Positions 3,066-57,473 of a stretch of 57,473 nt of DNA are shown piece by piece; position 1 is the stretch's first letter, and each line of letters opens with the position of its first letter. The stretch is taken from the IMG/VR virus record IMGVR_UViG_3300036985_006568, positions 1 through 57,473 of that record, one strand, 5' to 3'. The notes beneath the pieces are model-generated. The model did no database searches. It had not been told where the DNA came from and was given only the letters and a program-made list of their open reading frames with translations. The DNA is from a virus. Lineage: Duplodnaviria > Caudoviricetes. A program made the position numbers and the translations under genes.

Positions 3066-3647
3066 CTAGTTAGCTCGTATGATAAATTGATAATACCCAA
3101 CCATAGTGGTGATTGATCTAGTATTTTTCAACAGAAACTCGTCTATCGCTTTTTTAACCCCAGGGCAATTTGGCCATTCATAGTCGTCAAAAATTAATAT
3201 CCCACCAGTAGAAAGTCTTGGGATAATTAACTCAAGAGTCTTCCTCGTACCGATATAGGTGTCTGTATCACTATGGACGAAAGAAAATTTCTGGTATCGT
3301 TGTGTAAATGTATCTGGAAACTTACCAACCCTGTATACAACCAGACTGAATCCAATAAGACGACTCACTGCCTCAAAACTAGTGTCACAGAACTCGCCAT
3401 CCTTGTGAACATCGATAGATGGATCGGAGTTAACAAGCCCTGTGAATGTATCATATAGATAAAGAGTTTTTTCTGGTATGGTGAGTCTCATTAACTTTGC
3501 AGTATTTCCCTTATAGACTCCTATCTCAGCCATCACACCAGGTACATTTTTTGTTTTGAGTAGTTCCTGATATAATGATTGGGACTTAGTTCTACCTAGG
3601 ATTGCTCCATTACCCATCATAGACCAGATCTCTGAAAATTCCGTCAT
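3066..3647 (-). CDS. TylF/MycF (macrocin O-methyltransferase) family methyltransferase
   Basis: VPGVMAEIGVYKG, LYDTFTGL, FSFVHSDTDTY, GGILIFDDY..PGVKKAIDEF. Confidence 0.9.
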   Translation of the reverse strand: MTEFSEIWSMMGNGAILGRTKSQSLYQELLKTKNVPGVMAEIGVYKGNTAKLMRLTIPEKTLYLYDTFTGLVNSDPSIDVHKDGEFCDTSFEAVSRLIGFSLVVYRVGKFPDTFTQRYQKFSFVHSDTDTYIGTRKTLELIIPRLSTGGILIFDDYEWPNCPGVKKAIDEFLLKNTRSITTMVGYYQFIIRAN

Positions 3648-4639
3648 GGTTTCCTCACATCATAAATTCTAACCACAGGGACCCCTTCGAGTTCACCCCA
3701 GGGTAGACCATTTAAAACAGCAGTCGCCATCCACTTTCCAACCGGCGCTAAAACACAACGAGATAGGAACCCAGAGATAGCTGACTCGGTGTAGGATTCA
3801 AGTTGCCAATTTTGTGGGAGACCACACAATGCAAGTAACTCCCCATAGGTAAGTTTCCTCGGTTCATGTGGGTGCCAGGCATTTATTGGAAAAAGAACCG
3901 GACATGGCTCATCTGCACGTAATCTTTGTGAGAGGAATCCGGGTTTTGTGCCGGTCTTCTTATCTTCTGGTAGTGCTTGATAAGCAGCCAGGAACTTACC
4001 TTGATGATCCTTAGATATATCCCAAATAACCTCGTCAAAGGGTCTCCTTGCAAAAACCTTCTCATTTTCAAGTACCTCTACCTCAGCTAGGACTTCATCA
4101 ACGGTCCTTTGGTTGGTGAATTCGGGAAAGATGAGTGGTGTTTGGTGAGCAATAAAGAACATGCGCTTTCTGTTTTGAGGGGCTCCTAGATACATGTTGT
4201 TTTGAAGGATGATTGACACATGGTAACCGGCGTCAATCCACTTTTTTGCTTGTAGGTCTACAAAAGTTTTTCCTTTAGTGAAGCACGTGATGACAGATTC
4301 CCACATCCAAACATTGGGTCGTATGGTTAACCCAGCCTCTACTAGCGTCGTGATGCAGTCTAATCGTGGATCATCTTGCCAGTCTACACCCTTATTACCA
4401 GCAGCTGTAGACCAAGGGGCGCAGGGTGGGTTTGTAAAGAAAAGATCAATCTCTTTGAAGTCTTCCAGGTGCCATGCTTCCTTTCCAACCCTTATGTCGA
4501 GCCCCGGGAAGTTAAGCTTGGATGTCTTTACACCATAGTCATTGTGTTCAAGCTGTGCAAGGACGTTGAACCCCGCGTCCTTGACTCCTTTAATAAAAGG
4601 TCCCCCAAATACATTACCTGCCAAGGCCGTAGGTTTCAT
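3644..4639 (-). CDS. Divergent C5-cytosine DNA methyltransferase
   Basis: Catalytic PPC (TNPPCAPWS), motif VIII PQNRKRMFF, HPHEPRKLT..E, CGLPQNW; motifs I and VI are atypical. Confidence 0.8.
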   Translation of the reverse strand: MKPTALAGNVFGGPFIKGVKDAGFNVLAQLEHNDYGVKTSKLNFPGLDIRVGKEAWHLEDFKEIDLFFTNPPCAPWSTAAGNKGVDWQDDPRLDCITTLVEAGLTIRPNVWMWESVITCFTKGKTFVDLQAKKWIDAGYHVSIILQNNMYLGAPQNRKRMFFIAHQTPLIFPEFTNQRTVDEVLAEVEVLENEKVFARRPFDEVIWDISKDHQGKFLAAYQALPEDKKTGTKPGFLSQRLRADEPCPVLFPINAWHPHEPRKLTYGELLALCGLPQNWQLESYTESAISGFLSRCVLAPVGKWMATAVLNGLPWGELEGVPVVRIYDVRKP

Positions 4640-4640
4640 G

Positions 4641-4928
4641 TTAGTGCCATCTTTCATAAAATTCACCTGGTCTTGGCAAGTTGTCCTCACCATAGACCTT
4701 TTTAAGTTTACCTGAAGCGATATCCTCTTTAAATTTAAACTCCGCTTGAACTAGTCGATTCATAAGTTCTTTCACATCCCCGACTAGTAAAGTATCTTTA
4801 CCATGTTTTAATAGCAAGTTATCCATGAATCTACAAGCGGGTCCTTTTATACCAAAAATCTTTATGACGGTTAAAACCCACGTCTCGAGGGTTGAATTTT
4901 CTGGTGGGATGTGGTCATCTAGATTCAT
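4641..4928 (-). CDS. Hypothetical protein
   Basis: Tightly coupled ORF in the operon. Confidence 0.55.
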   Translation of the reverse strand: MNLDDHIPPENSTLETWVLTVIKIFGIKGPACRFMDNLLLKHGKDTLLVGDVKELMNRLVQAEFKFKEDIASGKLKKVYGEDNLPRPGEFYERWH

Positions 4929-5827
4929 AAGTTCCTTTCCGCGATCTCATAAATAAATTCGGACCATTTATCTGAACTGGAATGACTGGTCGCACCATAG
5001 ACTATTAAACTACCAAAGTGGCAAGAGCCGATGGATGATCCGTCTTCATTAATTGTTACTCGCCTAACCTTCCAAAGACAGTTCCTGGAGTAGGCTGGGA
5101 ACAGGGGGGCAAAGATAGTTGCTAGATAGTTACTGTCGTAGTATTCCTGCAGCTGATTAAATACGTCTCTTTGAGATGGCGTCATGTAAGGTTTGTAATC
5201 CTTCATTGAGGCAAATGTCCCATGCGAGTCGACGATATCAAGTCCGGTATATTCCAACATGGCCCCAAATGCTTGATAACTCATCTCATTCACATGGTTC
5301 CCTGCAGCCCCCGTTTCGGCATTATAGCAAGGTGTGGAGATGAAGGCAACACCTTCCTCTGTCAGGTGATCATGGATCCCCCTGAGGAGTTTCAGTGTTC
5401 CTTCTGGCTCCACATGCTCAGCAACCTCAAAACAGATGATCACATCATACTTATCGGGGATCTTTTCTGACGGTGTGAATTGATCTGGGAACACACAATT
5501 CTGAATCAAACGTAGTGGGAATTTACCACTTCGCAGCATCTCAGGAATTGTAAGGGCATTGTAGTCAACACCTACGTAGCATCCCCCTTCTTCTGGTACT
5601 GGGATCAATCTACTCGAATACATGAGCTTTGCCAGGGGGACTTCTCTCCCACAACCCACATCTAGGATCTTTAGAGACTTGTATCGTCTACTTGCACTCA
5701 TGTATTTTACCACATGAGTCCAACGAAGACAGTGGGCAATATAGTCCCTATGCAAAAATCCACGAGCCTCAGCTTGATCAATACTAAGATGCGTGTTGTC
5801 GATCTCTTTGCCTCTGATGTTTGTCAT
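4925..5827 (-). CDS. Class I SAM-dependent methyltransferase
   Basis: ILDVGCG, YVGVD, YDVIICFEVAEHV, FISTP motifs; start placed at MTNIRG. Confidence 0.85.
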   Translation of the reverse strand: MTNIRGKEIDNTHLSIDQAEARGFLHRDYIAHCLRWTHVVKYMSASRRYKSLKILDVGCGREVPLAKLMYSSRLIPVPEEGGCYVGVDYNALTIPEMLRSGKFPLRLIQNCVFPDQFTPSEKIPDKYDVIICFEVAEHVEPEGTLKLLRGIHDHLTEEGVAFISTPCYNAETGAAGNHVNEMSYQAFGAMLEYTGLDIVDSHGTFASMKDYKPYMTPSQRDVFNQLQEYYDSNYLATIFAPLFPAYSRNCLWKVRRVTINEDGSSIGSCHFGSLIVYGATSHSSSDKWSEFIYEIAERNL

Positions 5828-5862
5828 ATAACCCCTTTGGAATATTTTACAAAGTGTAAAAA

Positions 5863-6099
5863 TCAATCCCCTGTATTTAGGCGAGAGGTCACAATATTGG
5901 TTTCAGGATCAAGGATATAGATTCGATTATCTTTGCCATGTTTTTCTAGGAAGTCTCTTTTTGTGGCTACATGCCACCACCAATAGGCGTCATTATAGCC
6001 GGTCCATGTTATTTTACCTGCAGCCTTTGTATAGATGGACCAGTAGATATCATTACTATATTGAGCGAAGACTGCTGTTCCAACTAGGGTAGGGCTCAT
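5863..6099 (-). CDS. Hypothetical protein
   Basis: ATGA overlap with upstream gene. Confidence 0.5.
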   Translation of the reverse strand: MSPTLVGTAVFAQYSNDIYWSIYTKAAGKITWTGYNDAYWWWHVATKRDFLEKHGKDNRIYILDPETNIVTSRLNTGD

Positions 6100-10235: not shown

Positions 10236-10760
<525 letters not shown>

Positions 10761-10761
10761 C

Positions 10762-11016
10762 TTACTCTCCGAATAGAAGGCTGATTGATTTGTACGTTCC
10801 ATCCTTCATTAATTGCTTGTCTAGGTCCTCGAATCGCTTCACATTGATAGCAGTTCCACAACCACCACGCATAATCTCGTAGAAGGTCTGTATCCCTAAC
10901 CCTCTAAATTCTACATTGGATAAGAACAGTCCACCTAGGTCGCCGTTGCAGTAGACTTTTAATCTCATCATGACGTCGTTTGAGATATAATCTATCTTCT
11001 CTGTCCTTCGACCCAT
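10762..11016 (-). CDS. Hypothetical protein
   Basis: AGGAG RBS; lies between the two pentapeptide genes. Confidence 0.55.
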   Translation of the reverse strand: MGRRTEKIDYISNDVMMRLKVYCNGDLGGLFLSNVEFRGLGIQTFYEIMRGGCGTAINVKRFEDLDKQLMKDGTYKSISLLFGE

Positions 11017-11018
11017 GA

Positions 11019-11597
<579 letters not shown>

Positions 11598-52890: not shown

Positions 52891-53826
52891 TTAAAAAGGC
52901 CACTCTAGTGACCAAAAGTTTACGGTCTGCTTGATATATCGTGGAAGGTGAGTCCTTACCCGGCGTATCTTGTCTATCACCCTGCCATGTTTTACTTTCA
53001 TGGATTCATACTTTCTAAATTCACAGAATCCATCCTCCATCGCTTTTATATCAAAAGGGTTTCCATTGAAGTCAAACAAATCTAATTGTTCGAGGTCCAT
53101 TAACCTACAAAGGATGTGGTCCTTTAAATCGCACATCTCTTGAAGTGTTGGGGAGTGACCAAAGATTCCTTCTGCTATGCTCTTTGACCCCGGACCTATG
53201 AATAGGTAGTCGTTACTAGTGAATGGGAACTGAGGGTATAGGTAACAAAGAGAGGTGAACACCTCATATACCCTGAATGGTCCTAGGAGAGGGTATGAAT
53301 CCAACAGATGATGTATGACTCCTTTTGGTTTCTTCATCAACTGAATTAGTTGCACTGTTTGTTCGTAATTTTCCTCTACCATTTTGTAATGATCGAGGAG
53401 GTTATCTTCCCGTGTTTTACCCTCCCTAGTATGTATGAATGGCCACATGATCCCTGTATAGATATAAGTACTTGGATGTTTTTTCTGTACCTGTAGTAAT
53501 CCTTCTTTATCGAAGGGAATACCTACGGTATCAAAGTAGTTCATTATTGACGGGGACCAATGCTGTCGATAAAATAAGATAAATTTAACTTGTTCTGGAA
53601 AAGGGAGCCCTCTTATACCTCCTAACTCATACTTAGTTAGATGATTCTGTCTCCTAAATATATCTTCAAGTCGTCCAGGTCCATTTCTACGGTCCTCAAG
53701 TATAATCGGATCTGTTATCTTGTCTGATTGACCTGTTAATTCCAACATCCGGATCCCCTGGTAATATACCAGGAATTCGATATATCTCTCAAGGAGATCC
53801 GGATCCTTAATGTCGGAGGGGTTCAC
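52891..53826 (-). CDS. aGPT-Pplase1 / 5-hmdU DNA kinase helical-domain-like DNA modification protein (divergent)
   Basis: DPII, GPFRVYEV, IGPGS, EDGFCEFRKY match the family pattern. Confidence 0.7.
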   Translation of the reverse strand: MNPSDIKDPDLLERYIEFLVYYQGIRMLELTGQSDKITDPIILEDRRNGPGRLEDIFRRQNHLTKYELGGIRGLPFPEQVKFILFYRQHWSPSIMNYFDTVGIPFDKEGLLQVQKKHPSTYIYTGIMWPFIHTREGKTREDNLLDHYKMVEENYEQTVQLIQLMKKPKGVIHHLLDSYPLLGPFRVYEVFTSLCYLYPQFPFTSNDYLFIGPGSKSIAEGIFGHSPTLQEMCDLKDHILCRLMDLEQLDLFDFNGNPFDIKAMEDGFCEFRKYESMKVKHGRVIDKIRRVRTHLPRYIKQTVNFWSLEWPF

Positions 53827-54167
53827 TTCTTTCCTTTCTTCACCTTCTTAGTTGGAACCTTCTTTGCTGGGGGAACTACCAACTTCTTTGAAGTTTTCTT
53901 GCTTTTTGCACAAACCTTGGGCGTGATGTAGGTAGCAAATTTGATACTTTCACCACTCAAGATCGTACAGGTGTCTTCTCCTCCTACTGATCGTTTGCCA
54001 TATACAAGGCGATCGAGAACTACAGCTTGTTTTTTCAATAGCTTAGATGCAGCATTAAAGAAAAAATTCTCGGCCGTTTGCTTATTAGACAGGCTTACAC
54101 TATTAACCTGACCATACTCAAAAAATCTAACGCGATACCTCACACCGGCTTCAATCGGCTCGTTCAT
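53823..54167 (-). CDS. Hypothetical protein with Lys-rich tail
   Basis: ATGA coupling to the polymerase gene. Confidence 0.55.
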   Translation of the reverse strand: MNEPIEAGVRYRVRFFEYGQVNSVSLSNKQTAENFFFNAASKLLKKQAVVLDRLVYGKRSVGGEDTCTILSGESIKFATYITPKVCAKSKKTSKKLVVPPAKKVPTKKVKKGKK

Positions 54168-56032
54168 AACTCTACCTCCTTAGCTTCGCCCCAACTTGGT
54201 CCGAGTTCTACGTCGAGTTTAAGTGGGACTTCGAGTTGTACTGCATTAAGCAAGATATCCCGGACGATCCGAGCATCCTGCAGAGTTTCAATTGGTGTGT
54301 CAACCTCATCATGTAGCGTGATGTAGGGAATATAGTCAGCATCATACATGTCTAGCATAGCTAACTTGATCATGTCAGCAGATGTTCCCTGAATAACAGA
54401 GTTCATTGCTTTATGGATGAAATACCTTGTTACAGGTGGTCCATACTCCTTGAGCGCTTCTACTTTAGGTAATGGGATGCATCCATCCGTCCATTTCCTT
54501 GGACCGAATAGTATAAAACGTCTTTTTCTTCCAAGTACTGTTTTGACGTATCCTCTGTCATTAGCAACGTGCATACATTCATCCCCGAGTAATTTGATAA
54601 AGGGGACCGCGGCATGGTATTTGTCATAGAGTATAGTCGTTTCACCCGCCGTCTTTCCAAGTTGTTCAGCCATCTTTTTCTTTCCCATTCCATAAGCCAA
54701 TCCCAGGTTGAGACCCTTGGCCTCCTTTCTTGTAATGTCTGCCATGTCGGCGATAAGTTGGTGATAGTCTGTTGATGGATCTTTGATATACCTATCCCGA
54801 GCTTCTTCTGCTCCCTTAAATCCTCGTTTATACGCGTAATGCACAGTGACTCTGGGTTCTTGCTGTGAGTAATCGAACACTCCCCATTGTGTCCCAGATT
54901 CAGGAACGAATATGGATCGTATAAGTGGGGCCAGATACTCATTTTTTGCTGGTACCTGCTGCATATTAGGGTTCGCGGAGGCAAAACGCCCTGATTTGGT
55001 GCCCCCATCATCTGATCTAACCTGTCGATACGTTGGGTATATCCTCCCATTTGTAGCCATCTCCAGGATTTTCTTTTGTATGAAGACTGATCCACCACGA
55101 TCAAGTTGCCTGGTGAATAGTAACTTCTTAAAGAAGGGATCTTCACATGAGTGAAGCCATTCTGCCTCAAAACTTGGGTTTCCTTTTCCTGTTCGTGGGT
55201 AGATAAGTCCCAACCTGTCACAAGCCTTGGCAATATCCGTCCCAGACCAGATGTCAATATCTCTTCCTGCGAGTTTACCCAATTCTGAAAGTGATTGTTT
55301 ATGCTCCTTTGATAGGCGTTCATGAATCTGTTCTCCTTTAGCATAGTCTACGGGTATCCCTAATAGTCTCATTGCTAATAGGAGTCTAGTCATGCGTGAT
55401 TCTATTTCAAATACATTCCACAGACCTTCCTCCTTCAACCGTGGAATTTGTAAGTTGAATATTTGCAATGTTAAGGCAGCATCATCTTCGCCATAAGGTC
55501 CTACAAATTTAGCTGGAAATTTCCACATGTTCTCTTTGATTTTACTCTCAGGAATTCCCATGCACTTTCCCGCTTCTTTTAATAGGCCCTCATTTTTATG
55601 AACGCCACAGTATTCAAGTGCAAGAACGTCCAACTTATAACTTCGTTTGTTCTCATCTAGTAGAGGTTCAGCAATTTGAACGTCGTAGACGGGGCCATTG
55701 ACCTTAACATCTTCAGTTAAAAGCCACTCTAGATCATATATAGTGTTGGCCCCAACCTTCGCCCCCGGTCCACTAAGTTGATCCCGCAACCAGGCGAAGA
55801 CATTAGGTGCGTCCAGATTTCCTCCACCTTCATGTCGAACAGGATAGTAGCCCTTGAAACCGTCATCTGTAGCGACGGAGATTCCAATAATATAGCCACC
55901 TCCTCGCTTACAAGAAGGTCCCTTCGTGAGTAGGTCTGGGTCTTTAGTCTCTGTGTCGAGTCCGATGAGTTTTGCATCTCGTATATCCGGAAATGTTGTT
56001 GGCGCAATCCATGTCGATTCTGGAAGTATCAC
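54164..56032 (-). CDS. polA: Family A DNA polymerase with 3'-5' exonuclease
   Basis: LDTET (ExoI), SGRFASANPNMQQVP, DYSQQEPR, RKEAKGLNLGLAYG, IQGTSAD, HDE. Confidence 0.96.
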   Translation of the reverse strand: MILPESTWIAPTTFPDIRDAKLIGLDTETKDPDLLTKGPSCKRGGGYIIGISVATDDGFKGYYPVRHEGGGNLDAPNVFAWLRDQLSGPGAKVGANTIYDLEWLLTEDVKVNGPVYDVQIAEPLLDENKRSYKLDVLALEYCGVHKNEGLLKEAGKCMGIPESKIKENMWKFPAKFVGPYGEDDAALTLQIFNLQIPRLKEEGLWNVFEIESRMTRLLLAMRLLGIPVDYAKGEQIHERLSKEHKQSLSELGKLAGRDIDIWSGTDIAKACDRLGLIYPRTGKGNPSFEAEWLHSCEDPFFKKLLFTRQLDRGGSVFIQKKILEMATNGRIYPTYRQVRSDDGGTKSGRFASANPNMQQVPAKNEYLAPLIRSIFVPESGTQWGVFDYSQQEPRVTVHYAYKRGFKGAEEARDRYIKDPSTDYHQLIADMADITRKEAKGLNLGLAYGMGKKKMAEQLGKTAGETTILYDKYHAAVPFIKLLGDECMHVANDRGYVKTVLGRKRRFILFGPRKWTDGCIPLPKVEALKEYGPPVTRYFIHKAMNSVIQGTSADMIKLAMLDMYDADYIPYITLHDEVDTPIETLQDARIVRDILLNAVQLEVPLKLDVELGPSWGEAKEVEL

Positions 56033-56033
56033 C

Positions 56034-56462
56034 TCAACTCCTATGAATCCATGAACGTCCAGCAGCTAACCAAAGTAATTTTGATTGGGGATGGGGATAC
56101 TCAGATGTAAATACTATTCGCTGACAGCTCGTATTTAACAGAAGTTTAATACAGGTGATGCATGGAGAGGCTGTGCAGTAACAGGTATCTATTGAATAAA
56201 CGTCATGACATTGGAGCAAGGCATTCTGCTCCGCATGGATTGCCTCACAAAGATCTAACCCCTGACCTGATGGAGCAAATGCTCCGGCACAAGGATTATC
56301 TATGCAATGAGGTAAACCAGCCGCCACGCCATTATAACCCGTTGCAATAACATGATGTCGACTATTTACTAGGACGCATCCTACCTTTCTACGAGTGCAG
56401 GTTCCCCTAGTAGAAACTAACTTTGCCATCTCAAGAAAATACTCATCATGTGAAGGTCTCAT
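56034..56462 (-). CDS. dCMP deaminase
   Basis: ATGYNG, HAEQNA, SPCITC; ATGA-coupled to the TS-like gene. Confidence 0.93.
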   Translation of the reverse strand: MRPSHDEYFLEMAKLVSTRGTCTRRKVGCVLVNSRHHVIATGYNGVAAGLPHCIDNPCAGAFAPSGQGLDLCEAIHAEQNALLQCHDVYSIDTCYCTASPCITCIKLLLNTSCQRIVFTSEYPHPQSKLLWLAAGRSWIHRS

Positions 56463-57268
56463 GTGAAAAGGTCTCCTAGCCAGAGTGGGTTTGGGTTGCA
56501 ATTCTTGTTTTTCGCTACATTCCATAGGTGCTCTACAACCTCGTCATAAGAATCAAAGATATCTGTGTCTACGGATCGTATTGTAAAAATCTCACGTTTA
56601 CTTAGGATTGAGCTAACAATTTCAAATTGTTCTTTATAAAGATGCTGTGAGGCAGCATTGAAATAAAGTTCACCCAATGTTATTATACATTCTTTTTTCA
56701 TAAATGTATTAATTTGTTTCATTATTCCTAATGATAAACAACTAAAATTAAATATATCATAAGGAACACCCATCCAAGCGTCAGATGAACGCATATTCAG
56801 GAAACAATGGAGTTTATCTTCTCTTATCATCCACTGAGCGGATATTGTGCATGGAACATCTTTTGTTATCGGAGGATTCTGTCGCCATATTGTTAGAACT
56901 GCTTGACGTGATTCTCTATCATTCACTAGCGATTTAACAATATGCCCGACCTGATCTATGATCCTCGGACCATAGGCCCCAAAGAACCGTTCCCCGTCAT
57001 CGCTAAAATTTGAGATCATCTTTGAGAAGGGGGCAATCGTCTTTACTCGGTTATCACCACTCATTATCCAAGCGGCTTCTGCGGCCATGAAATGGTATCC
57101 TAATTTGCGTTCCCTTACACAAACTACCGGGTTATTCATATTGATTGTCATACTTCGCCCTAATATCTCCCTAGTTTCCTTTCCTCTAGGATTAACGGGT
57201 CTTCCATTAAAATAGACATCACTTAGTAGATAAAACCAAGATAAAGACGTTGAATTATCGAGTCTCAT
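56459..57268 (-). CDS. Thymidylate synthase superfamily protein, probable dCMP (hydroxy)methylase
   Basis: GAYGPRI, SRQAV, DVPCT, MRSSD..GVPYD (Asp at the specificity position), SQHLY. Confidence 0.85.
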   Translation of the reverse strand: MRLDNSTSLSWFYLLSDVYFNGRPVNPRGKETREILGRSMTINMNNPVVCVRERKLGYHFMAAEAAWIMSGDNRVKTIAPFSKMISNFSDDGERFFGAYGPRIIDQVGHIVKSLVNDRESRQAVLTIWRQNPPITKDVPCTISAQWMIREDKLHCFLNMRSSDAWMGVPYDIFNFSCLSLGIMKQINTFMKKECIITLGELYFNAASQHLYKEQFEIVSSILSKREIFTIRSVDTDIFDSYDEVVEHLWNVAKNKNCNPNPLWLGDLFT

Positions 57269-57278
57269 TTAACGCCTC

Positions 57279-57446
57279 TTACAGTACTGGTTCTGAAATT
57301 ATTGCTAGTAATATCCTGCAAGCTATTCCCGGAGCCTTCTTTATTCTGGTTTCAAGTTCATAACAACGGTCACAGCGCTTTGTACCTGTATAGATAGTGC
57401 TATCACCGCATAGTTCACAAGGAACACTTTTTCTAATGTCTGGCAT
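57279..57446 (-). CDS. Small Zn-finger protein (55 aa; its 5' part is repeated at 1-100)
   Basis: CELCG...CDRC; GAGG RBS. Confidence 0.55.
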   Translation of the reverse strand: MPDIRKSVPCELCGDSTIYTGTKRCDRCYELETRIKKAPGIACRILLAIISEPVL

Positions 57447-57473
57447 CTCTTACCTCTGCTCTAATGCGGAACG
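57347..57473. repeat. Terminal direct repeat, copy 2
   Basis: Identical to 1-127. Confidence 0.95.

Follow-up and report, generated by a model that had tools for sequence, protein, structure and literature searches.

The window analysed here is the whole of IMG/VR virus record IMGVR_UViG_3300036985_006568, the closed genome, 57,473 bp long, of an uncultured phage. Bases 1–127 are identical to bases 57347–57473, a 127-bp direct terminal repeat (DTR), and the record carries the class DTR and a completeness of 100%. Two overlapping genes near its right-hand end are the subject of this report. One encodes a thymidylate synthase (TS) homologue of 269 residues (56459–57268; PF00303, E = 2.4e-22), predicted from its active-site residues to be a dCMP 5-hydroxymethylase, and the other a zinc deaminase of the dCMP family, 142 residues in length (56034–56462; PF00383, E = 3.5e-21). 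Both lie on the minus strand, as do all the other features of the window given below. The TGA stop codon of the TS gene (56459–56461) and the ATG of the deaminase gene (56460–56462) share an ATGA tetranucleotide (56459–56462), and a Shine-Dalgarno-like AGGAG (56473–56477) lies inside the 3′ end of the TS gene, 10 nt before that ATG; both features can be read directly from the sequence.

The longest open reading frame (ORF) of the deaminase begins upstream of the overlap, at 56525; however, 33 homologous deaminases start at a methionine that aligns with the overlapping ATG, and the latter is therefore taken as the start. The translational coupling that a sequence-only reading of this DNA had proposed is thus upheld. 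Across 33 loci the distance between the TS stop codon and the deaminase ATG is 1 nt in 26, an overlap in four, and 370–547 nt in three; the ATGA form of the junction is used by the window and by locus L051. The deaminase scores 75.4 bits against PF00383 (cut-off 25) and features the zinc-binding and catalytic motifs of the family, HAE at residues 76–78 and PCxxC (PCITC) at residues 100–104. Its best relatives of solved structure are dCMP deaminases (2hvv, E = 4.8e-18, and 4p9c of cyanophage S-TIM5, E = 1.7e-11), and the ComEB model matches it with an E value of 6.9e-23, which is below that model's cut-off. The deaminase is 71% identical to that of L002, the sole close relative of the window phage, in which the TS, the family A DNA polymerase (PolA) and a C5 methyltransferase are 58%, 77% and 73% identical, respectively. 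The identity falls to 54% for the deaminase of phage AXL3 and to 29% for the cd protein of PaMx74, a phage reported to carry 5-methylcytosine (5mC) in its DNA (bioRxiv 10.1101/2024.12.05.627091). A near-identity DNA search with the TS–deaminase region gave zero matches among cultured phages.

The TS homologue covers positions 6–226 of the 266 in the PF00303 profile. Canonical TS was represented by T4 td and by further TS chains of solved structure, and alignment positions are numbered as in E. coli TS. In the phmmer comparison with the solved chains, the last aspartate of the query segment rssDawmGvPyD falls on the asparagine of GvPfN, and in a MAFFT alignment with T4 td, Asp171 (GAT codon, 56756–56758) occupies the column equivalent to Asn177. 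The catalytic Cys146 corresponds to Cys140 (TGC codon, 56849–56851), and the 31 residues that separate Cys140 from Asp171 equal the spacing between positions 146 and 177.

Six active-site positions (143, 146, 147, 165, 169 and 177) were compared with those of reference enzymes taken from phage records. In the window protein they are filled by Asp137, Cys140, Thr141, Met159, Asp163 and Asp171, respectively, a D-C-T-M-D-D signature that is identical to that of the T4 dCMP hydroxymethylase gp42 (D-C-T-M-D-D) at six of six positions. T4 td has L-C-H-Q-D-N, gp42 of phage Acj9 has E-C-T-M-N-D, and the TS proteins of the 5mC phage PaMx74 and of a Bosa-like phage have N-C-P-L-D-D. The group of dUMP hydroxymethylases, represented by the enzymes of SP10, SPO1L4, PaMx11 and Kuttervirus, has D-C-N-N-D-N; according to the published accounts, the SP10-type enzyme is the characterised one among these references, with SPO1L4 and KE27 being relatives of SPO1 and ViI.

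It has been reported that Asp177 goes with dCMP instead of dUMP as the substrate (eLife 2021, PMC8670742; NAR 2026), that an acidic residue replacing Leu143 goes with hydroxymethyl rather than methyl products (NAR 2026), and that Asn169 (D169N) marks the flavin-dependent 5-hydroxy-dCMP synthases (NAR 2026). In the window protein the position of Leu143 is taken by the acidic Asp137, and Asp163 is kept at position 169, where those flavin-dependent enzymes have asparagine. The Asn177, His147 and Leu143 of canonical ThyA are replaced by Asp, Thr and Asp, and the best NCBIfam TS equivalog model gives 69.1 bits against a cut-off of 327. The pattern of the dUMP hydroxymethylases (D143, N147, N177) is broken by T147 and D177. 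The pattern of the 5-methyl-dCMP (5m-dCMP) synthases (D177 with a non-acidic residue at 143) is shared only as far as D177, with positions 143, 147 and 165 differing from those of PaMx74. These comparisons give good support for assigning the TS homologue as a C5 transferase specific for cytosine, and probably as a hydroxymethylase. The sequence-only reading had taken the aspartate to mark an enzyme for cytosine nucleotides, which agrees with the published rule for position 177 and with the kept residue. It had left the product as 5-hydroxymethyl-dCMP (5hm-dCMP) or 5m-dCMP; the residues at positions 143, 147 and 169 strengthen the former, while the latter is disfavoured.

Close kinship with T4 gp42 is not seen. 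A tree of the TS homologues, which does not resolve at depth and has long branches, was set aside for classification; given the weak overall identity to gp42 (see below), the protein is filed as gp42-like by its residues but in a separate clade. Its best relative of solved structure is the CMP 5-hydroxymethylase MilA (PDB 5b6d, 5jnh; E = 1.8e-17), with which it has in common the DVxCT motif and the Asp177-type residue in the alignment. MilA is reported to have aspartate at both specificity positions (NAR 2026). Unlike the window protein, MilA is a ribonucleotide enzyme of the bacterial mildiomycin pathway, with neither a phage cassette nor a deaminase partner. As a separate observation, gp42 of the Acinetobacter phage Acj9 (L038, 335–1039) is annotated as a dCMP hydroxymethylase and has Asn169; by the rule given in NAR 2026 it would be a 5-hydroxy-dCMP synthase.

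The TS homologue belongs to a very large group. Among 1.84 billion cluster representatives scanned with HMMER, 8030 matched at E ≤ 0.001 and 578 at E ≤ 1e-30, the latter being clusters at 50% identity. Aspartate is found at position 177 in 150 of the 150 best 50%-cluster representatives, and the exact six-residue signature in 141 of them. Both Asp177 and the D-C-T-M-D-D signature are likewise present in all of the 30 related loci that were found through the TS in a scan of IMG/VR. Asp171 is therefore not a chance substitution, and the aspartate that had been read from the sequence at the E. coli Asn177 position is borne out by both alignments, by the spacing to Cys140 and by these relatives. 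A word-indexed search found 1779 clusters at E ≤ 1e-20, in which the records that carry a name say 'thymidylate synthase'. Nine long proteins among the best 150 representatives were accounted for by inteins, by one TS–MazG fusion (P0046) and by unidentified N-terminal extensions. A TS–deaminase fusion was found neither among these nine, nor in six longer matches, nor in the best 120 of the 1779 near-length matches. Inteins with HNH endonuclease domains interrupt the clade members P0029, P0045, P0110 and P0162–P0165.

Since the genome is closed and the corresponding genes of L002 are contiguous, the genes at the two ends of the record form one block. The order in L002 is methyltransferase, C5 methyltransferase, MazG, kinase, TS, deaminase, PolA and HMUDK_hel. 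In the window, the head of the cassette is a class I S-adenosylmethionine (SAM) methyltransferase (4925–5866; PF13489, Methyltransf_23, E = 1.9e-12, with a weak UbiG-like match). A MazG-like NTP pyrophosphohydrolase (2351–2881; PF01503, E = 1.6e-5; phrog_671) is a candidate dCTPase, and a P-loop kinase resembling thymidylate kinase (TMK), with the motif GPDATGKTT (1178–2347; phrog_761, E = 9e-6; TIGR00041, E = 0.0039), is a candidate 5hm-dCMP kinase. PolA, with a 3′–5′ exonuclease (54164–56032; PF00476, E = 4.3e-50; PF01612), lies directly downstream of the deaminase gene.

The cassette is conserved. A deaminase homologue directly follows the TS in 30 of the 30 related loci, and in 26 the upstream genes include homologues of both the MazG-like NTPase and the SAM methyltransferase; in the other four the locus extends less than about 600 nt upstream. 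Between the MazG and TS genes, BLAST detects a homologue of the kinase in 12 of the 30. The SAM methyltransferase also has homologues in AXL3, PW916 and ct3Et533, and in the annotations of AXL3, PW916 and a Manatee Spring podovirus the genes run in the order methyltransferase, NTP pyrophosphohydrolase, thymidylate kinase, TS and dCMP deaminase. Of 31 related virus records, 19 encode ThyX; among those with a completeness of 90% or more the figure is 15 of 18, and AXL3 and PW916 have the gene as well. The relatives thus have a use for dUMP, and most of them combine a predicted cytosine-type hydroxymethylase and a deaminase with a separate enzyme for converting dUMP to dTMP, which is the arrangement of T4.

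The T4 pathway for hydroxymethylcytosine consists of the dCMP hydroxymethylase gp42, the dCTPase gp56, the dNMP kinase gp1, the dCMP deaminase cd, and td. The window cassette has the same set of activities (NTPase, kinase, hydroxymethylase and deaminase), as predicted from its genes. It differs from T4 in that the NTPase is of the MazG type and the kinase of the TMK type, in that its genes are packed into a single cassette that includes a conserved SAM methyltransferase, and in that no glucosyltransferase and no dUMP-type TS were found in the window genome.

We consider it probable that the window encodes a T4-like cassette for cytosine replacement, in which the TS homologue makes 5hm-dCMP while the coupled deaminase works on a separate branch from dC to dU. 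The active-site residues, the coupling, the cassette and its conservation are observed; from them we infer every activity and the final DNA base. Cys140 would attack C6 of dCMP, with Asp171 reading the N3/N4 face of the cytosine, and methylene-tetrahydrofolate would supply the exocyclic methylene. At the entrance to the site the acidic Asp137 would admit water instead of hydride, yielding 5hm-dCMP. The MazG-like NTPase is expected to convert dCTP to dCMP, and the TMK-like kinase together with host enzymes to raise 5hm-dCMP to 5hm-dCTP, which the phage PolA would incorporate. The deaminase, presumably translated in step with the hydroxymethylase by virtue of the ATGA overlap, would turn dCMP (or dCTP) into dU nucleotides for thymidylate and at the same time lower the pool of unmodified dC. 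As the phage encodes no enzyme for it, thymidylate would be made by the host enzyme. The conserved methyltransferase and, in the window lineage, the HMUDK_hel protein may modify the base further. We also count in favour of the T4-like cassette the TS–MazG fusion P0046 and the apparent kinship of the deaminase with canonical dCMP deaminases (2hvv, ComEB), its identity to PaMx74 cd being only 29%.

The cassette of AXL3 and PW916 has the same gene order as that of the window, and its TS is 47% identical and carries the same signature. Unlike the window, these two phages have ThyX and lack HMUDK_hel, and in AXL3 the TS and deaminase genes are separated by 370 nt rather than overlapping. AXL3 DNA is reported to be cut by two of 37 restriction enzymes, TasI and Tru1I, whose sites (AATT and TTAA) contain only A and T, from which the authors inferred an altered G or C (AXL3 paper). 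By comparison, the DNA of SPO1, in which 5-hydroxymethyluracil (5hmU) replaces T, is reported to be fully resistant to only four of 30 enzymes. The AXL3 pattern fits a cytosine modification made by the shared cassette; for the window phage, with a TS of 47% identity, it is evidence of an indirect kind. The papers that describe the two phages annotate the enzyme either as ordinary TS or as dUMP hydroxymethyltransferase.

Several observations weigh against the T4-like cassette as drawn above. Over its whole length the TS homologue is nearer to the SP10 dUMP hydroxymethylase (BLAST identity 32%, E = 1.7e-24) than to T4 gp42 (23%, E = 7.8e-6), so that the class assignment depends on a few residues and on published correlations. 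The window genome, unlike those of most relatives, has no ThyX and only a single PF00303 match, that is, no second TS, which leaves the phage with no dUMP consumer of its own. It also encodes a homologue of C5-cytosine DNA methyltransferases (3644–4693; PF00145, E = 4.4e-21), shared only with L002, with PPC and QNRKR motifs and with ESV replacing ENV. Such an enzyme would have no substrate in the phage DNA if every cytosine were substituted at C5, and its presence suggests that some cytosine is unsubstituted. Lastly, deaminases adjoining Asp177 TS genes are reported to be capable of preferring C5-modified cytosine, a trait described as polyphyletic (bioRxiv 10.1101/2024.12.05.627091); the substrate specificity of the window deaminase therefore cannot be read from its family membership.

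Two genes downstream of the deaminase lies a 311-residue protein (52891–53826) that contains only an HMUDK_hel domain, matched in part (PF18723, E = 2.2e-12, 47.4 bits against a cut-off of 25, profile positions 133–277). It shares motifs with PaMx11 gp50 and with the C-terminus of SP10 gp186, but it has no P-loop. The 5-hmdU DNA kinases described in print are P-loop kinases, namely M6 gp54, PaMx11 gp49 and SP10 gp186 (NAR 2021). In SP10 gp186 the N-terminal P-loop domain is fused to a C-terminal HMUDK_hel domain, while in PaMx11 the two are adjacent separate ORFs, gp49 and gp50. The P-loop kinase domain PF18748 has no match at E ≤ 1 in the complete window genome, although the positive controls SP10 (1.7e-25) and PaMx11 (9.4e-5) scored, and phmmer searches of the window ORFs gave no match to PaMx11 gp49 or to the SP10 N-terminus. 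The amino-acid:DNA transferase (ADDT, also aGPT-Pplase) model PF18724, the one clade model searched, likewise has no match at E ≤ 1, and Pfam scans of the ORFs showed no other. The HMUDK_hel gene is thus not a kinase gene, and the thymidine hypermodification pathway is absent. The inference that the sequence-only reading drew from the neighbouring '5hmU-kinase-like' gene, a route from 5hm-dCMP to 5hm-dUMP, is not supported: the gene is HMUDK_hel only, with neither PF18748 nor PF18724 in the genome. The thymidine hypermodification clusters of SP10, PhiW-14, M6, PaMx11 and ViI likewise have HMUDK_hel near a pyrimidine hydroxymethylase and PolA. In contrast to the window, whose hydroxymethylase is of the predicted cytosine type and which lacks PF18748 and PF18724, they combine it with a dUMP hydroxymethylase, a P-loop 5-HMUDK and an amino-acid:DNA transferase.

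HMUDK_hel is present in two of the 31 relatives, G001 and G007, the latter recruited through the HMUDK_hel protein, and thus in one of the 30 recruited through the TS. In the complete genome G007, ThyX and HMUDK_hel are encoded along with an Asp-type TS and deaminase that are coupled by ATGA. A mutual exclusion of HMUDK_hel and ThyX, which would have favoured a thymine-replacing lifestyle, was considered and is ruled out by this genome. In Neferthena and Pikmin, two Microbacterium phages, an HMUDK_hel-like protein accompanies a TS that has gp42-type motifs; no PF00383 deaminase and no ThyX were found in either, and PF18748 is absent in Neferthena. HMUDK_hel therefore travels with predicted hydroxymethylases of both base types, and with the cytosine type even where there is no deaminase, which argues against a requirement for 5hmU made by deamination. 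It may serve to recognise 5-hydroxymethylpyrimidines in DNA, or act on them as an enzyme. Neighbours in the Atlas of a 58%-identical HMUDK_hel homologue were only HMUDK_hel and ADDT clusters, fungal chromodomain fusions included. HMUDK_hel-only proteins lie beside cytosine-type hydroxymethylases in at least four lineages (the window, L051 at 943–2040, Neferthena gp55 and Pikmin gp55), with no P-loop kinase domain. Pikmin gp50 (L043, 3778–4587) is annotated as 'ThyX thymidylate synthase'; it matches PF00303 and has gp42-type motifs, and the genome lacks PF02511, so the label is probably a mis-annotation.

The association of such genes with modified cytosine has been described from metaviromes. 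The MetaGPA study found PRA-PH and dCMP deaminase domains in company with TS domains on contigs bearing modified cytosine (Yang et al., eLife 2021, PMC8670742), and position 177 is reported there as the top discriminating residue. These neighbourhoods resemble the window in their domains, in the order of magnitude of their spacing and in the Asp177 rule. A later study from the same group reports that 104 of the 149 deaminases on modified contigs are located within 3 kb of a TS, as against 17 of the 277 on unmodified ones, with PRA-PH and PolA among the top neighbours of the deaminases on modified contigs, and its authors hypothesise that the deaminases adjoining TS act on C5-modified dCMP (bioRxiv 10.1101/2024.12.05.627091). 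According to that preprint, seven of 90 deaminases gave 5hmdU in an in vivo 5hm-dC system; the partners of all seven were predicted to make 5m-dCMP, and five of the seven were confirmed. One of these methylation-selective cytidine deaminases (mSCDs), mSCD-B5, is described as acting on 5m-dCTP and on 5hm-dCTP, which it converts to 5hmdUTP in vitro, and not on dCMP, and the role proposed for the mSCDs is the supply of dTTP from 5m-dCTP in 5mC phages. The window deaminase resembles them in being encoded beside an Asp177 TS, which it overlaps; its partner has a hydroxymethyl-type signature, whereas the metavirome mSCDs, as reported, pair with 5m-dCMP synthases. Both the pairing of an Asp177 TS with an adjoining deaminase and the deamination of a base after its C5 modification (the methyl branch) are thus already in print, and the window system is a known type of phage kit for modified cytosine in DNA rather than a new pathway.

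The alternative put forward by the sequence-only reading is that modification precedes deamination. The TS would make 5hm-dCMP, the deaminase would turn the 5hm-dC mono- or triphosphate into 5hm-dU, and the DNA would contain 5hmU, with or without 5-hydroxymethylcytosine, on which HMUDK_hel would act. The chemistry is possible, and being in print for 5mC phages it is not new. The preference of some deaminases beside an Asp177 TS for C5-modified cytosine, the conversion of 5hmdCTP to 5hmdUTP by mSCD-B5 and the seven in vivo positives of 90 (bioRxiv 10.1101/2024.12.05.627091) lend it support. So do features of the window itself: the absence of ThyX or a second TS, the position of HMUDK_hel two genes from the deaminase, and the C5 methyltransferase homologue, which suggests that plain cytosine remains in the DNA. 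The comparative data point the other way. Of the 30 TS-recruited relatives with the TS–deaminase pair, 29 lack HMUDK_hel, and ThyX accompanies the pair in 15 of the 18 near-complete relatives, including G007, which has both HMUDK_hel and ThyX; conversely, Neferthena and Pikmin have HMUDK_hel and an Asp-type TS with no PF00383 deaminase. The genome contains neither a P-loop 5-hmdU kinase domain nor an ADDT transferase, and the 150 nearest representatives and 120 nearest clusters revealed no TS–deaminase fusion. Of the published observations, AXL3 DNA is cut at AATT and TTAA and at no site containing G or C, and the seven positives of the screen all had 5m-dCMP-type partners, none of those reported being of the hydroxymethyl type. 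With HMUDK_hel in only one of the 30 relatives that have the pair, and the Microbacterium phages lacking the deaminase, the route is not supported by comparison and we regard it as unlikely. If it were true, the cytosine-type synthase would be the only source of 5hmU nucleotides, making the system the hydroxymethyl counterpart of the published bypass from 5m-dCTP to dTTP.

A second possibility, modelled on Xp12, is that the TS methylates dCMP to 5m-dCMP, and that some of the 5m-dC nucleotide pool is then converted by the deaminase to thymidine nucleotides, in place of a thymidylate synthase. This route has been proposed in print (bioRxiv 10.1101/2024.12.05.627091). It is in keeping with Asp177, which is common to the 5m-dCMP synthases, with the absence of any other TS from the window genome, and with the 5mC phage PaMx74, which has the same MazG–TS–deaminase order and overlapping TS and cd genes. 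Three other active-site positions do not agree: at 143, 147 and 165 the window protein matches T4 gp42 (D, T and M), whereas PaMx74 and the Bosa-like phage read N, P and L, and an acidic residue at 143 is tied to hydroxymethyl products by the published rule (NAR 2026). In addition, the window deaminase is only 29% identical to PaMx74 cd, and most relatives carry ThyX and would not need the bypass. We therefore consider this route somewhat less probable still. Least probable is an enzyme that uses dUMP despite its aspartate, either as a thymidylate synthase or as a dUMP hydroxymethylase, with the deaminase feeding it dUMP. Database records name the enzyme thymidylate synthase, the AXL3 and PW916 papers annotate it along these lines, and among the characterised phage enzymes compared, the dUMP hydroxymethylases are the most similar overall. 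Yet no member examined retains Asn177 or His147 (or Asn147), the score of 69 bits is far from the NCBIfam TS equivalog cut-off of 327, and the relatives carry a separate ThyX. Moreover, Asp177 is reported to correlate with cytosine-modified contigs (eLife 2021, PMC8670742), and AXL3 DNA, according to its description, resists enzymes with G or C in their sites. What probability lies beyond the T4-like cassette and these three alternatives is kept for products that have not been foreseen.

The main value of the analysis is one of correction: the reading of the aspartate was right, and the reasoning from a supposed 5hmU kinase to a pathway was not, as the gene lacks the kinase domain. Public records mislabel as 'thymidylate synthase' a very large group of phage enzymes (578 clusters at 50% identity, E ≤ 1e-30), and this Asp-type TS group very probably marks phages whose DNA contains C5-modified cytosine. 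This bears on the evasion of restriction, on the sequencing and cloning of such phages, and on the mining of enzymes for epigenetic sequencing tools.

The kinase encoded at 1178–2347 has two domains, a P-loop domain resembling dTMP kinase followed by a tail of about 180 residues, of which residues 250–364 give a weak match to the uracil-DNA glycosylase (UDG) superfamily (PF03167, E = 0.0064, below the cut-off). The kinase of the Manatee podovirus has 187 residues and lacks the UDG-like tail. This ORF was considered as the missing DNA base kinase and rejected, being dissimilar to PaMx11 gp49 and to the SP10 kinase domain and having a P-loop of the dTMP-kinase type; it is a candidate dNMP kinase. 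Sequence searches against solved structures gave nothing useful for this protein, for the HMUDK_hel protein or for the SAM methyltransferase. The substrate of the latter could be the 5-hydroxymethyl group or a nucleotide; a literature search on 5-methoxymethyl cytosine in bacteriophage found no paper.

The remaining features are minor. A TylF-like O-methyltransferase is encoded inside the cassette (3066–3647); its presence there, together with the C5 methyltransferase homologue, is odd for a phage in which C5-substituted cytosines are expected. Between the PolA and HMUDK_hel genes lies a gene for a 114-residue protein (53823–54167) with no family match and a lysine-rich tail, KKTSKKLVVPPAKKVPTKKVKKGKK, which may bind DNA. 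The early region encodes two pentapeptide-repeat proteins (10236–10802 and 11019–11597; PF00805, E = 4e-69 and 1e-40, respectively), which may be DNA mimics.

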